Of a DNA stretch of 49,330 bases, positions 10,441 to 49,330 are shown one piece after another (position 1 is the stretch's first letter; each line of letters opens with the position of its first letter). The translations under genes were made by a program, and so were the position numbers. Below the pieces are notes generated by a model, which saw nothing but the letters and a program-made list of their open reading frames with translations, searched no databases and was not told where the DNA came from. Source of the stretch: a virus; the UHGV virus genome UHGV-0139780, one strand, 5' to 3'.

Positions 10441-10515
10441 GATGGTGTAGCTCAGCGGCAGAGCAGTTGGCTGTTAACCAACTGGTCGGTGGTTCGAATC
10501 CACCCACCATCGCCA
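10441..10515 (+). tRNA. tRNA-Asn (anticodon GTT)
   Basis: Cloverleaf by eye: acceptor gatggtg/caccatc, anticodon loop ctGTTaa, T-loop ggttcgaatcc, encoded CCA. Confidence 0.8.
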
Positions 10516-10520
10516 ATTTA

Positions 10521-10608
10521 GGGGAGTTAGTCCGTAGAGGTAGCGGGGTAGACTGTAAATCTACTGTCATTGCGACTCGGATGGTTCGACTCCATCACTC
10601 CCCACCAA
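10521..10608 (+). tRNA. tRNA-Tyr (anticodon GTA), long variable arm
   Basis: Acceptor ggggagt/actcccc, anticodon stem-loop tagac-tGTAaat-ctact, long variable arm, T-loop ggttcgactcc, CCA. Confidence 0.8.
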
Positions 10609-10611
10609 ATT

Positions 10612-10687
10612 GCCGGTTTAGCTCAGTTGGTAGAGCAGTCGCTTTGTAAGCGAATGGCCAGCGGTTCAAGTCCGTTAACCGGCACCA
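10612..10687 (+). tRNA. tRNA-Thr (anticodon TGT)
   Basis: Acceptor gccggtt/aaccggc, D-arm gctcagttggtagagc, anticodon loop ttTGTaa, T-loop ttcaagt, CCA. Confidence 0.65.
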
Positions 10688-10695
10688 CAACAATT

Positions 10696-10782
10696 GGAGA
10701 GTAGGGAGCATGGTGCTCAAACGGTCTTGAAAACCGTCCCATTGCGCAAGCGATGATGGTTCGATTCCATTACTCTCCGCCA
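10696..10782 (+). tRNA. tRNA-Ser (anticodon TGA), long variable arm
   Basis: Acceptor ggagagt/actctcc, anticodon stem-loop acggt-ctTGAaa-accgt, long variable arm, T-loop ggttcgattcc, CCA. Confidence 0.75.
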
Positions 10783-11454: not shown

Positions 11455-12558
11455 ATGAAAAATAGCTTTGACAGAGCACGCGCTGCGGAGAACACCTCAA
11501 AAGAGGCGATTGAGTATCTCGAAAGAGCATCTCAAATGCAGGCCGTTATGATCTCCCAGGTCAGCAATGACATGAGATTCTCGGACGCATTCATGTTATT
11601 CACTCGCTTATCTCTGCTGATAACAAGACGTCGGCCAGAGATCGCTGTTCATTGTATTTTGATACATGTTTTGCCGCACATTGCCGACGTAAAAGTAAGT
11701 GATATTAATAGGTTCATGGTGAACCAACTGGTCAACCCACTAATACTGGATGGCAAAATTGTTATGGGCCGCCGCGTTTTCTCTCTGATGAAGCAGTTCC
11801 TCAGCTGGTGCGCCTTCCAGGGGATGATCGACGTGTCACCGTTAAACGATATGTCACTGAACAAAGTTGCCGGTGGCGCAAAGCCCACGCCTCGCGAGCG
11901 GAAGCTGACCGACGCAGAGGTATGGGTGTTCTGGAATATATGGGACTACTTCAATGTGTGCGCTGGTACAAAATGGGCGGCCAGGCTATGCCTTGTATCG
12001 GCAAGACGACCTGACGAAGTTCTGCGGGCTAAAAAAAGTGAGTTCAATCTTAAGCGTGGGGTTTGGAATCAAGGCAAGAGAAACAAGTCAGCACGTGAGC
12101 ATTCGCTGCCTTTAAGCACATTAATGCGCACATGCATTGAAGAATTGTTCGAATACGGCAAAGACAGCCAGTGGCTTGTGCCTTCGAATAAAAAAATCGG
12201 GAAAGACCTTCCTATGTCTAAAGTGGCAATAGCCCAGGCATTACGTCGTATTCTGGACCGACCAGAACTGATGGAGCTTGAGCCATTTACACCCCGAGAT
12301 TTGCGCCGTACTGCGCGTAGTTACTTCCCAGCATTAGGCATAAGCCAGGAGGTATCACGCAAAATCATGAACCACAGTCTTGAGGGGATAGATCGGGTCT
12401 ACGATCGACACGATTATATGGACGAGATGCGAGACGCCTTAGAAAGTTTCTCGACGTACATCGCATCAATCGTAGAGCAACCGGATTTAGACGAAATTGA
12501 CCACAAATTCAAGGGAGATCGTCTATCAACAGAGCTTATTCGTGTAAATTTTTCATAG
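11455..12558 (+). CDS. tyrosine site-specific recombinase (integrase/resolvase family)
   Basis: C-terminal catalytic-domain signature: ARLCLVSARRPDEV, TPRDLRRTARS, NHSLEGIDRVYDRHDY; N-terminal start uncertain. Confidence 0.6.
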   Translation: MKNSFDRARAAENTSKEAIEYLERASQMQAVMISQVSNDMRFSDAFMLFTRLSLLITRRRPEIAVHCILIHVLPHIADVKVSDINRFMVNQLVNPLILDGKIVMGRRVFSLMKQFLSWCAFQGMIDVSPLNDMSLNKVAGGAKPTPRERKLTDAEVWVFWNIWDYFNVCAGTKWAARLCLVSARRPDEVLRAKKSEFNLKRGVWNQGKRNKSAREHSLPLSTLMRTCIEELFEYGKDSQWLVPSNKKIGKDLPMSKVAIAQALRRILDRPELMELEPFTPRDLRRTARSYFPALGISQEVSRKIMNHSLEGIDRVYDRHDYMDEMRDALESFSTYIASIVEQPDLDEIDHKFKGDRLSTELIRVNFS

Positions 12559-12939
12559 AGACTTTATGGCCTCAACAACCTTTTGTGATGCGCCTTTCTC
12601 TTTACCGAATCGCTCGTTATATGCAGCAAGAACCTGTTTTTCGTCCTCGTTAAGAGGAGCGGTGCCTTCTTTGTATAAAAATGCTGCGAGTTCAGGTTGG
12701 CGTTCTTCCAGAACCATCATCATAAGGCGACTTGGCTCAATATCCAGTGCCAGCGCCAGCGGACGAACCTTATCGATAGGCAAAGGAATTTTGCCACTTT
12801 TAATTAAAGAAAGGTTGTTGGCATTTTTATAACCAATAAGTCTGGCTATTTGTGCCTGACTCATAGATGAGGATTCAATCAGCCCTGCAATAACAGCAGC
12901 ATAGCGACTTTCAATAAATTCAATTTTGTTTTCAGACAT
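12553..12939 (-). CDS. XRE-family helix-turn-helix transcriptional regulator (repressor-like)
   Basis: HTH segment SQAQIARLIGYKNANNLSLIKSGK; convergent with the recombinase gene; AT-rich intergenic region upstream. Confidence 0.6.
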   Translation of the reverse strand: MSENKIEFIESRYAAVIAGLIESSSMSQAQIARLIGYKNANNLSLIKSGKIPLPIDKVRPLALALDIEPSRLMMMVLEERQPELAAFLYKEGTAPLNEDEKQVLAAYNERFGKEKGASQKVVEAIKSL

Positions 12940-46843: not shown

Positions 46844-47437
46844 ATGATTGCAGCTGAAAAAATCAAACAGCGAAAGCGCGACAACTCTCTTCGTGATCTC
46901 TGGAGAACACCTGATTGGCTGTTTTCTGCCATTCAACGTTATCTTGGAGTGACATTTGATGTTGACGTTGCCTGCAACAAGGACAATGCAAAGCTGCCAA
47001 ATTTCATAGGCGTTGAGCGCGATGCTTTGAAATCTGAATGGGGGCAGCCAGGTACAATTGCCTTCCTCAATCCACCCTACTCCAAAATCTCCCCCTGGAT
47101 TGATGCGGCTATACGTGAGCAGGCTCGCGGAGTTACAACCGTGATGCTAATTCCTCAATCCCTCGATACAAAGTGGTATGAGCGTGCAACAGAGTGTGCG
47201 AATGAGACGATTATTCTGTCTGGTGGCCGCGTAGCGTTTGTCGAGCCTGACGTCAATTTGGGTCAGGTAGAAGTAAACATCAACCCCGGTGGCAGTATGC
47301 TCGTTGTTTTTCGAGGATTCTGTCAGGATGCTGGGCACTCTATAAGCAAGATCCCTCTGGACGTCATGAAAAGTCTGGGAGGGTATGACCCTGCGAATGT
47401 GATCAGGAAAAAAAGACCATCAAAGAAGGCTGCTTAG
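46844..47437 (+). CDS. DNA N6-adenine methyltransferase (phage Dam-like)
   Basis: NPPY catalytic motif and WRTPDWLF N-terminal block; start at ATG 46844 (track begins at a TTG at 46832). Confidence 0.65.
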   Translation: MIAAEKIKQRKRDNSLRDLWRTPDWLFSAIQRYLGVTFDVDVACNKDNAKLPNFIGVERDALKSEWGQPGTIAFLNPPYSKISPWIDAAIREQARGVTTVMLIPQSLDTKWYERATECANETIILSGGRVAFVEPDVNLGQVEVNINPGGSMLVVFRGFCQDAGHSISKIPLDVMKSLGGYDPANVIRKKRPSKKAA

Positions 47438-47460
47438 TTTGTTCTGGCGTCTGTAATTAG

Positions 47461-47520
47461 CCTGCTTCTGTATATATAAATAACTACATATTAATTATTA
47501 ATATACGGAAACAGGCTGTT
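47461..47520 (+). terminator. large hairpin with AT-rich loop plus T-run; copy B of the recurring element
   Basis: cctgcttctgtatata ... atatacggaaacagg followed by ctgtttt; homologous to 3948-4009. Confidence 0.5.
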
Positions 47521-47598
47521 TTATATCAGAGACTCCAGACCTGAACATCATCACAGAATCCACTAGAACCCCTTCCCAGACGCTTTAAAATCGATTTT

Positions 47599-47853
47599 AT
47601 GAACCACTTTAAGGAAACCAACATGTCATACCCGACTAATGTCGTTGCACTCGTAGAGAGCGATTTTCTGGCTCAGGCTCGTGAAATGATGAAAGATCGC
47701 GAGCAGGCTTTCACCTTGTATGAATGGGCAATTAAGTGCTTGCATCTTGGGGAGCATCGCGAACTTGTTGAACAGCTTTTAGGTGAGTTGATCAATGAGG
47801 TGTTTGCCTTGAATGTTCAACTACATGGTCGAGAAAGCAACCAATCACAATGA
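47599..47853 (+). CDS. hypothetical small protein
   Basis: 84-aa ORF with AAGGAAACCAACATG start context. Confidence 0.3.
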   Translation: MNHFKETNMSYPTNVVALVESDFLAQAREMMKDREQAFTLYEWAIKCLHLGEHRELVEQLLGELINEVFALNVQLHGRESNQSQ

Positions 47854-48382
47854 TAGATAAGTACTAACTATTTATAAAGTGAATGATAAGTGCTAAGATC
47901 TGATAGTTTCCAGTCGTAGACTGGAGGCTCGACCTGATGGGTGGGGGTAAGCGTCACTGGCGTCAGGTTTAAAAAAGCTCACTACCAGCGTAGAACCGGC
48001 ACCGTTTAGGGGTTGGGGAAGGGGGAACCAAAGTGGGCAGAGAGAAGGGTCACTTTATGATTGTCGAGTCTGGGGTGTTTCGAGAGGTTGAATCCAGTAC
48101 TCCCCTTCATAAAGTGTGGGAAGATCTCGGTTCTGGGGTGCTGTCATCCATAACTTCCCAAGCCTAAGCTGGCAGTAGACTTAGGTCATAACTTTTCAGG
48201 TTATGAAACGACCAGGTTGGTGAGGAATTTTTATACTCACCTCCCTGGGAGAGTATTACCTGAAAAGACAACCTCTCACTTCGTTCGAGGTGAACTTCAC
48301 TCACTTCGTTCGTTCAGTTCAGGTTTTATTAAAATCTGTTCTGGGAAGTAAGTTTTTTTTTTTCTAAAAAATTTTTAATATT

Positions 48383-48408
48383 TACACGCACGCGTGTGCG
48401 CACGCGCG
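48383..48408. repeat. 26-nt perfect alternating purine-pyrimidine tract flanked by T/A runs
   Basis: tacacgcacgcgtgtgcgcacgcgcg; preceded by a T13 run and followed by an A8 run. Confidence 0.6.
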
Positions 48409-48448
48409 AGGAAAAAAAATCGGCGCGGCGCTTGATTCAGGAGTTTAT

Positions 48449-48640
48449 ATGACGTCGAAGACACCAGCCCGATCGCAAGCAAAAACTCGCAAAAAAAACA
48501 AAAACAAAAATTCTCCCCACACCAATCCCACAACACCTGTCGTAGGATTCAATCCCCAGCTTAAAACCGTGAAAATCTTCAGTGATGGCTCTTGCCTTAA
48601 AAATCCGGGTGGCCCGGGCGGTTACCCCGGTGCGCCGTAA
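48449..48640 (+). pseudogene. rnhA-like (RNase HI) N-terminal fragment, interrupted by an IS element
   Basis: VKIFSDGSCLKNPGGPGGY matches the recalled RNase HI N-terminus (IFTDGSCLGNPGPGGYG); frame ends right after TTAC at 48622-48625. Confidence 0.5.
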
Positions 48641-48683
48641 AGCCCCGTCCTTCAGGTCGGGGATATAAGGCGCGGTTTTCCAC

Positions 48684-49100
48684 CTAACCAGGTGTTTGCT
48701 GTTGTTCAATGTATTGGCGGATGATGGATATTGGTGCACCACCGCAGCTACTGGCAAAATAGCTGGGACTCCATAAAACGCCTTTGTGGTAATATCGGGC
48801 TGCAATATCTGGTCGATCTCGTCGCAATAATCTACTCGATACGCCCTTGAGACTGTTCACCAGGCTGGATATCGCCAATTTTGGGGGATAGTTAATTAGC
48901 AGGTGAACGTGATCTCGTTCTCCATCCATTTCAACCAGTTCAGCTTCAAAATCAGCACATACACTTGAAAAGTAAGTGCGTAGTTTTTCTATTGCGTCAT
49001 GGTCAAAAATCTGACGTCGGTATTTCGCGACAAAGACAAGGTGAACGTGCATCAGGAAGACGCAGTGCCTTCCACGTCGGATATCAGTTTCTTTTTTCAT
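48684..49100 (-). CDS. tnpA: IS200/IS605 Y1 (HUH) transposase TnpA
   Basis: HVHLVF...KYRR and DHVHLL HUH blocks, C-terminal LWSPSYF...GGAP; start at internal ATG 49100 (MKKETD...). Confidence 0.75.
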   Translation of the reverse strand: MKKETDIRRGRHCVFLMHVHLVFVAKYRRQIFDHDAIEKLRTYFSSVCADFEAELVEMDGERDHVHLLINYPPKLAISSLVNSLKGVSSRLLRRDRPDIAARYYHKGVLWSPSYFASSCGGAPISIIRQYIEQQQTPG

Positions 49101-49122
49101 AGACCAAAGTATAATTTGGCTT

Positions 49123-49330
49123 ATGAAACGACTACAAGCCTTCAAATTCCAGTTAAGACCAAATGGACAGCAGGAGCGTAAAATGAGGCGCTTCGCGGGC
49201 GCATGTCGTTTTGTTTTCAATCGTGCTCTGGCGCTTCAGAATGAGAATCATGAGGCCGGGAACAAATATATTTCTTATGCAAAGATGACTTCCTGGCTGG
49301 TTGAGTGGAAAAATGCCACTGAAACCCAAT
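49123..49330 (+). CDS. tnpB: IS605-family TnpB (OrfB), N-terminal part only
   Basis: MKRLQAFKFQLRPNGQQERKMRRFAGACRFVFNRAL is a typical OrfB N-terminus; no stop before the window end. Confidence 0.6.
   Translation, partial: MKRLQAFKFQLRPNGQQERKMRRFAGACRFVFNRALALQNENHEAGNKYISYAKMTSWLVEWKNATETQ

Follow-up and report, generated by a model that had tools for sequence, protein, structure and literature searches.

A probable gene for a large structured non-coding RNA ahead of rnhA in SSU5-type phage-plasmids

What does a phage-plasmid keep in some 600 bp of DNA that hold no substantial open reading frame (ORF)? The question is raised by the virus genome UHGV-0139780, analysed here as one strand of 49,330 nucleotides (nt) and called the window below, in which positions 47854-48448 separate a gene of 76 amino acids (aa) from rnhA, the gene of RNase HI. 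A preliminary description, made from the letters alone, presented this region as one ORF-free, hairpin-rich feature that could not be assigned to any known class, and considered a structured non-coding RNA (ncRNA), a packaging or regulatory region and a remnant. Its account of the composition was largely borne out: neither strand bears an ORF of 60 aa or more (the longest has 46 aa), the plus strand folds with a minimum free energy (MFE) of -198 kcal/mol (z -5.8), six G runs of at least four stand against one C run, a 12-nt direct repeat (TCACTTCGTTCG) occurs at 48276-48287 and 48301-48312, and a perfect purine/pyrimidine (Pu/Py) alternation of 26 nt (TACACGCACGCGTGTGCGCACGCGCG) lies ahead of rnhA. 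The reported T13 run proved to be T11. The evidence presented below makes it probable that the plus strand from about 47905 to 48363 is a self-contained gene for a stable, folded ncRNA of about 455 nt, which would act through its structure and probably in trans.

The window is a phage-plasmid of the SSU5/pLF82 (Cyrano) type, because its positions 47400-48700 match Escherichia phage Cyrano (pLF82; 96% identity), Salmonella phage SSU5 (82.5%) and over 900 plasmids from Escherichia, Klebsiella, Salmonella, Enterobacter and Citrobacter. These plasmids are 105-115 kb long and almost all non-mobilizable. The RNA element itself was counted in 687 PLSDB plasmids, in 232 of 5426 complete E. coli genomes and in 53 metagenome contigs. 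The comparisons were made with 8 annotated relatives, the 53 metagenome contigs and 73 IMG/VR loci retrieved through the upstream 76-aa gene, and all 73 of these loci carry the element.

Conservation along the locus is markedly uneven. Mean pairwise identity is 0.73-0.84 in the flanking coding sequences (the Dam and 76-aa genes), falls to about 0.6 at 47840-47939, rises to 0.87-0.98 at 47940-48339 and drops to 0.57 at 48340-48389, so that the central part forms a sharp-edged island, conserved across elements of E. coli, Salmonella, Klebsiella, Citrobacter and Kluyvera. Conservation of this non-coding block exceeds that of the surrounding coding genes, rnhA included. The ORF-free stretch thus stands as described, but not as one feature, since a conserved core is set between poorly conserved flanks (Table 1). 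No reading frame accounts for this island. The 44-aa ORF annotated in Cyrano as CYRAN_81 (48033-48167 in the window) is frameshifted in other lineages by indels of 1-2 nt at 48072-48080, and all remaining ORFs of at least 30 aa are likewise frameshifted in other lineages, at 48072-48080 or 48236-48238. None of the ORFs of the region encodes a hydrophobic peptide. CYRAN_81 is very probably not a protein, and its annotation inside the RNA core (L001, 6635-6769) is likely an error. A remnant or frameshifted gene, one of the options first considered, is refuted by the relatives as well: none of about 130 related loci carries a gene at this place.

The conserved block has the properties of a folded RNA. 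The minus strand of 47854-48448 reaches an MFE of -161 kcal/mol (z -5.5), against the -198 kcal/mol of the plus strand, and the predicted transcript (47906-48363) has a z of -4.8. Twenty control windows of equal length gave a mean z of -0.7; the only comparable one contained the tRNA cluster (Asn-GTT, Tyr-GTA, Thr-TGT and Ser-TGA at 10441-10782), which lies about 37 kb from the RNA locus. The RNAalifold consensus of 68 sequences comprises 121 pairs in 18 helices. Across 62 distinct sequences standard pairs occupy 99.9% of the cells, compared with 38-49% when the partners are slid by 1-3 columns, and compensatory double changes were found at 8 pairs (86 cells), compared with 0-2 pairs (0-6 cells) in the slid controls. 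None of 500 shuffles reached the observed score. When 29 further distinct sequences were added (97 in total), only 24 of 11,728 cells were unpaired (0.2%), and unpaired columns varied twice as often as paired ones. The consensus fold also contains 13 conserved G-U pairs which, together with the difference of 37 kcal/mol between the strands, place the structure on the plus strand. The best independent support for the fold comes from the 5' hairpin, helix 3 (with 4-5 complementary variants), helix 1 and helix 18. An all-against-all covariation screen for pseudoknots was swamped by lineage effects and its signal was unusable.

Expression data are available from the LF82 study (PMC9928086), in which CYRAN_81 was listed as a "moron" transcribed 12-fold over the local background. 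Its S1 Table gives RNA-seq values for ten samples, covering LB, medium and the 1-h and 6-h stages in macrophages (raw data GSE154648). In log2(fpkm+5), where fpkm stands for fragments per kilobase per million reads, the upstream gene CYRAN_80 ranges from 3.1 to 5.8, CYRAN_81, inside the core, from 6.8 to 10.4, and CYRAN_82, the RNase H gene, from 2.6 to 5.0. The average counts are 117 for CYRAN_81, 9.5 upstream and 8.4 downstream. Core RNA exceeded either neighbour 11- to 40-fold in 10 of 10 samples, with a peak in macrophages at 6 h. The core therefore gives rise to a discrete transcript, more abundant than both neighbours, which calls for a promoter of its own as well as termination or processing ahead of rnhA.

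A promoter of this kind is predicted at the left edge of the block. It would be of the sigma-70 type with an extended -10 (TGnTAnnAT), and the transcription start would fall near 47905. Across lineages the -10 hexamer reads TAAGAT, TAAAAT, TAGAAT, TACAAT or TAGGAT, with T1, A2, A5 and T6 invariant, and TGn precedes it in every lineage but one. The variation is confined to weakly constrained positions, which is the pattern that a -10 hexamer tolerates. In a simple promoter scan the window copy scored only 8/12 and was not reported; the equivalent promoter of the second RNA type described below scored 9/12.

The putative promoter sits behind a palindrome (GGTAAGTACTTACC) that is probably an operator or a phage-specific promoter element. 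With its flanks (ATA-GGTAAGTACTTACC-TAT), the motif has 10 matches with at most 3 mismatches in the window, compared with 0.98 expected, and none of 100 shuffles reached 10. Copies are found at 246, 4095, 9677, 12971, 32345, 37029, 46816 and 47856, among others, and every site is intergenic, at the start of a plus-strand transcription unit. The best copy (12971) adjoins a gene for a helix-turn-helix (HTH) repressor-like protein (12556-12939, minus strand). As the palindromes mark intergenic starts of transcription units, one of them beside a repressor-like HTH gene, they suggest a phage-plasmid regulon that would include the RNA promoter. At this promoter the SSU5, Citrobacter and Kluyvera lineages have a perfect copy; the SSU5 site matches ATAGGTAAGTACTTACCTAT exactly, while that of the E. 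coli lineage is degenerate.

The ends of the predicted RNA are also structured. The 5' hairpin begins about 6-8 nt past the -10 in all relatives and is present with at least 7 different stem sequences, each of them fully complementary. Hairpins at the extreme 5' end are a classic form of 5'-end protection. At the other end, the RNA likely terminates at the T11 run, as a U-tract that directly follows the closing stem of a three-way junction; the relatives are T-rich but variable at this position, and in the LF82 data the RNA level drops at least 12-fold ahead of rnhA. Just upstream, the two TCACTTCGTTCG copies flank CGAGGTGA. The consensus fold pairs the 3' GAAGU with the first copy and CGAGGUGA with the second. 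Visual inspection shows that the middle segment could be bound by either copy, and since the bases are invariant, covariation cannot discriminate between these pairings.

Table 1. Predicted and annotated features of the RNA locus and its borders (positions in the window).
Feature	Position	Strand	Remarks
Upstream gene, 76 aa, phrog_5343	47623-47853		Borders the RNA locus on the left
Degenerate palindrome copy GATAAGTACTAACT of motif GGTAAGTACTTACC	47856-47869		Just upstream of, and abutting, the -35 region
Predicted sigma-70 promoter	47871-47899	+	-35-like TTTATA 47871-47876, 17-nt spacer, extended -10 TGC-TAAGAT 47891-47899
RNA gene, ~455 nt (predicted)	about 47905-48363	+
5'-terminal hairpin	47905-47929	+	11-bp stem, GUA loop; covarying stems
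Conserved ncRNA core, ~425 nt	47927-48352	+	18 predicted helices
Direct repeat TCACTTCGTTCG x2 around CGAGGTGA	48276-48312	+
T11 run	48353-48363	+	Directly past the closing stem of the 3' three-way junction; candidate U-tract terminator
AT-rich, poorly conserved spacer	48364-48382		Mean pairwise identity 0.57
Alternating Pu/Py tract, 26 nt	48383-48408	+	Sole alternating tract of at least 16 nt in the 49-kb window
GC-rich hairpin	48398-48431	+	3' half of the Pu/Py tract forms its 5' arm; A8 run 48412-48419 in the loop
rnhA ribosome-binding site CAGGAG and first 59 codons of RNase HI	48438-48625	+	Start codon at 48449

Taken together, these features are best explained as follows. The RNA would be transcribed from its own extended -10 sigma-70 promoter behind the operator-like palindrome, which is found at many transcription-unit starts; its 5' end would be protected by the terminal hairpin; the transcript would fold into a multi-domain structure of about 18 helices; and most transcripts would stop at the U-tract, ahead of rnhA. 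The folded RNA would then most likely bind a protein or nucleic-acid partner in trans, acting neither through a peptide nor through simple antisense pairing with the mRNAs of the element. Simple antisense control of its own genes is unlikely because its complementarity to the rest of the Cyrano genome is at chance level (longest match 13 nt; shuffles 11-15 nt).

Several points weigh against this explanation. The data point to no partner or phenotype, and action in trans is a best guess. Most core positions are invariant, and most helices are supported by thermodynamics alone. The sequences represent few lineages, and in the all-against-all screen lineage effects by themselves yielded many apparently compensatory column pairs; the covariation events that count as independent are therefore few. 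The extreme conservation of the core could come partly from recent recombination between lineages, and not from selection on every base. The LF82 figures are per-gene counts from a supplementary table, without transcript ends or strand at the locus. Finally, the E. coli majority and Klebsiella lineages have a weak or interrupted U-tract, so that read-through into rnhA is possible.

The RNA was then compared with known families. A scan against Rfam 15 (4227 models, including ROOL, GOLLD, OLE, hok/sok, RNAI, small ribozymes and riboswitches) gave no match for the locus at the gathering threshold; the four hits that reached this threshold in the window were all in the tRNA region. In a permissive scan of 47400-48700 the best E-value was 0.043, for a plant microRNA model, and all scores were far below gathering. 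ARAGORN found no tRNA or tmRNA in the region. The Rfam scan that had been proposed as a check thus returned no family. Searches of the available literature for this RNA turned up only the LF82 paper (PMC9928086), where the locus appears as a "hypothetical protein" or "moron" ORF. In RefSeq the region is unannotated in the 232 E. coli genomes; other records have an RNase H that is too long or the spurious ORF of 44 aa.

In SSU5-like elements that are more distant, with 45-56% identity in the 76-aa protein, the genes follow the same order of Dam gene, 76-aa gene, a gap of 560-650 nt and RNase H, but the gap has a different sequence. This second type (type 2, the RNA of the window being type 1) was found in 30 Klebsiella plasmids, where it is unannotated, and in 10 IMG/VR contigs. 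An example is K. michiganensis pRHBSTW-00909_5 (L084, 3229-3790), and further ones are L085, L087-L091 and L096-L105. Its layout comprises a palindrome, a predicted promoter (TTTACT-17-TATGAT), a hairpin at +1 that covaries, some 430 nt in which several helices covary and, at the 3' end, a canonical terminator hairpin with U7 in which a compensatory change occurs. The type-2 loci had no match in Rfam 15. Homology between the two types was rejected: the local alignment score was 24 (shuffle mean 24.6 +/- 3.6), nhmmer gave no match, and a covariance model of the 5' domain had a best E-value of 0.62. Since alignment, nhmmer and covariance model were all null, the motif GGTGGGGG..AGCG..AAAAGCTCA common to both types was not taken as evidence of kinship. 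Two unrelated structured RNA genes thus share one slot beside RNase H. A scan of genome contigs for more distant relatives gave two Kluyvera loci only.

The presence of RNase HI immediately downstream of both RNA types, despite their unrelated sequences, is a reason to ask whether the transcript serves replication. The RNA, or its 3' part, could remain hybridised to the template near the AT-rich spacer and the GC-rich tract, be processed by RNase HI from the neighbouring gene or from the host, and prime DNA synthesis. The locus would then be an additional origin, perhaps a lytic one, comparable to ColE1 RNA II or T4 oriF/oriG. We regard such an R-loop origin as the main rival explanation, though an unlikely one. 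Several features would suit it. The locus lies among DNA-metabolism genes, and Cyrano has a T4-like replication and recombination set that comprises UvsW (the R-loop helicase in T4), UvsY, a gp32-like single-stranded DNA-binding protein (SSB), a RecA/UvsX-like protein and SbcCD. The strand of the RNA is rich in G (GC skew +0.16, with the imbalance of G and C runs given above), and an AT-rich stretch followed by a GC-rich structured tract lies 3' of the core.

Known RNA-primed origins resemble the locus in part. The distance from promoter to rnhA, about 550 nt, recalls RNA II. The locus shares with ColE1/pMB1 RNA II a promoter at this distance from a structured A-run site, a G-rich folded RNA, a link to RNase HI and carriage on a plasmid. 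It differs in that the element has a RepA replicon of its own, the RNA ends in a U-tract (type 1) or a canonical terminator (type 2), there is no similarity in Rfam or sequence, and an RNA I-like antisense gene is lacking: no such gene or promoter was found inside the 5' part, there was no RNAI match, and the only promoter-like sites on the minus strand, at 47912-47883 and 47878-47850, both face away from the RNA. Like T4 oriF/oriG, the present locus combines a promoter and an AT-rich stretch with genes for UvsW, UvsY, gp32-like and UvsX/RecA-like proteins, but the T4 origins are short (a promoter and an unwinding element of about 50 bp) and lack a conserved folded RNA of 425 nt. In extrachromosomal cluster A mycobacteriophages, non-coding regions of 400-500 nt that are expressed in the prophage state are origins (Wetzel et al. 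2020, PMC7157519). Those phages have no repA and their RNA lies beside parABS; here RepA is present and parA and parB are elsewhere. The hosts are also unrelated, and there is no sequence similarity.

Other observations speak against a primer. The RepA replicon is located elsewhere, with parA at 29 kb, the RepA gene at 60.6-61.7 kb, the RNA at 78.5 kb and parB at 105 kb on the Cyrano map. The canonical intrinsic terminator of type 2, with its compensatory change, argues for release of the transcript, and the RNA accumulates to a high level in lysogens. The AT-rich spacer, which would presumably be the site of unwinding, is the least conserved part. The cumulative GC skew is monotonic, tracks gene orientation and is uninformative.

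The position of the RNA ahead of rnhA also raises the question of a cis-acting 5' leader that would control rnhA and the genes behind it by attenuation, by processive antitermination or as a sensor, the abundant RNA being its terminated or processed product. In most loci the RNA lies on the same strand as rnhA and at a fixed position ahead of it, several lineages have a weak type-1 terminator, and the TCACTTCGTTCG repeats around a complementary segment would permit alternative pairings. In addition, the GC-rich hairpin between the RNA and rnhA is predicted in every lineage (free energy -15 to -26 kcal/mol), 6-12 nt ahead of the Shine-Dalgarno sequence. The ratio of core RNA to rnhA RNA argues against a simple leader: RNase H RNA is 11- to 40-fold below the core in all ten LF82 samples, and read-through was seen in no condition. 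The module is intact without rnhA downstream in five locus types (L007, L008, L045, L064 and L083), and it remains 94-97% identical where other genes stand in place of rnhA. Conservation of the core far exceeds that of rnhA, and the core length of about 425 nt is much larger than that of known leaders of such a kind. A leader function is accordingly rated as improbable.

A further rival reading is that the conserved block acts as DNA, with transcription being incidental. Such an element might be a hotspot of recombination or a junction between modules, a site of Z-DNA or of a cruciform, or a region bound by protein, kept similar by recent exchange between phage-plasmids. The conserved block does have sharp edges, the E. 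coli lineage has two core haplotypes, one of which shares several states with the SSU5 lineage, and the phage-plasmids encode recombination proteins of their own. Where rnhA is replaced, for instance by a DUF262 gene in a Salmonella Tennessee plasmid (L008), the homology breaks right after the A-run; since such a break occurs in five locus types, the GC-rich hairpin is also a mosaic junction. The A-run, A5 to A10 among otherwise near-identical relatives, is a slippage-prone site. The RNase H starts of SSU5 (SSU5_090; L003, 6844-7608) and pKPHS1 (L006, 1958-2626) were likely mis-called upstream, because these ORFs run through the length-variable A-run.

The alternating tract itself is conserved. 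None of 200 shuffles yielded one of 26 nt or more, and all type-1 loci keep an alternating run of 14-29 nt, mostly 25-26 nt, in which the sequence drifts between CG and CA/TG steps and which is invariably followed by AGG, the variable A-run and a GC-rich segment. The Z-DNA potential noted at the outset holds to the extent that the tract is an uninterrupted alternating run rich in CG and CA/TG steps and that the alternation persists across lineages. A simpler explanation of this conservation is that in every lineage the 3' half of the tract supplies the 5' arm of the GC-rich hairpin before the rnhA ribosome-binding site; the Z-DNA potential is at the level of sequence only. An element acting as DNA would not require the compensatory stem substitutions, and each of the 13 conserved G-U pairs would become an A-C mismatch on the opposite strand, to which the MFE gap of 37 kcal/mol adds. 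Moreover, the RNA is discrete and abundant, and the core holds no iterons or repeats except the one 12-mer pair. We thus consider a purely DNA-level role quite improbable. A packaging site, also suggested initially, is unlikely given that the terminase genes are about 78 kb distant in Cyrano.

Highly structured mRNAs of about 400 nt are typical of hok-type toxins, and a 44-aa ORF here is annotated and listed as expressed, but a small-protein function, be it CYRAN_81 or a type I toxin in a hok-like mRNA, is very improbable in view of the frameshifting indels, the lack of a hydrophobic ORF and the absence of any Rfam match to hok/sok or another toxin-antitoxin RNA.

A structured ncRNA, the first of the options originally considered, is therefore the one favoured by conservation above that of the neighbouring coding sequences, compensatory pairing, a fold specific to the plus strand and a discrete, abundant transcript in LF82.

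The surroundings of the locus in the window are altered on the right. Here rnhA is truncated after codon 59 by the insertion of an IS200/IS605-family insertion sequence (IS) 3' of TTAC at 48625, and homology to Cyrano ends after GGTTAC at the same position. The insertion falls in 48622-49330, and the right end of the IS element lies beyond the window. It contains the domains Y1_Tnp (a Y1 transposase, minus strand) and HTH_OrfB_IS605 (the start of a TnpB-like gene, plus strand). The intact RNase H protein of Cyrano matches Pfam RNase_H with an E-value of 8e-44. Cyrano further encodes Pol III alpha, a helicase, a primase, a ligase and the plasmid RepA, and the presence of the T4-like set beside RepA hints at two replication modes. 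Plasmids that carry the RNA are typed as IncFIB or rep_cluster replicons; a 49-kb plasmid record, checked for a locus kept in the absence of repA, was an incomplete linear assembly and was uninformative. In a distant relative, Moellerella wisconsensis pNX2019-MW3 (L086, 3226-4650), the Dam and 76-aa genes are kept, but neither RNA type nor rnhA is present; their place is taken by one additional small gene and some 970 nt of DNA without annotation, followed by a type I restriction gene.

The RNA is of a known kind, the large structured RNAs of mobile elements, yet it fits none of the known families. It resembles ROOL and GOLLD, and also OLE and raiA, in its length of hundreds of nt, its many helices, its strong conservation, its mobile or temperate carrier and its discrete, abundant transcript. 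It differs from them in that it matches no Rfam 15 model, resides in phage-plasmids of Enterobacteriaceae and lies beside rnhA and not beside tRNA genes. Bacterial and phage RNAs of such size and conservation are rare, and the large conserved RNAs known so far have proved to be ribozymes, scaffolds of ribonucleoproteins or large assemblies. The replacement of one RNA by a second, unrelated one beside RNase HI is unusual. The RNA also offers a tractable example, with the genetics of E. coli and Salmonella, existing RNA-seq data and the cultivable phages SSU5, Cyrano and PhiR41_1.

SSU5-type phage-plasmids are present in about 4% of complete E. coli genomes and in hundreds of Klebsiella, Salmonella and Enterobacter plasmids. 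Very tentatively, the RNAs might represent a new class of large structured phage-plasmid RNAs, of at least two unrelated types, which together with RNase HI and UvsW/UvsY would form an R-loop origin or a switch of copy number or induction. If this were true, the SSU5-type elements, which are clinically widespread, would possess, in addition to RepA, a circuit for replication or decisions that is based on RNA.

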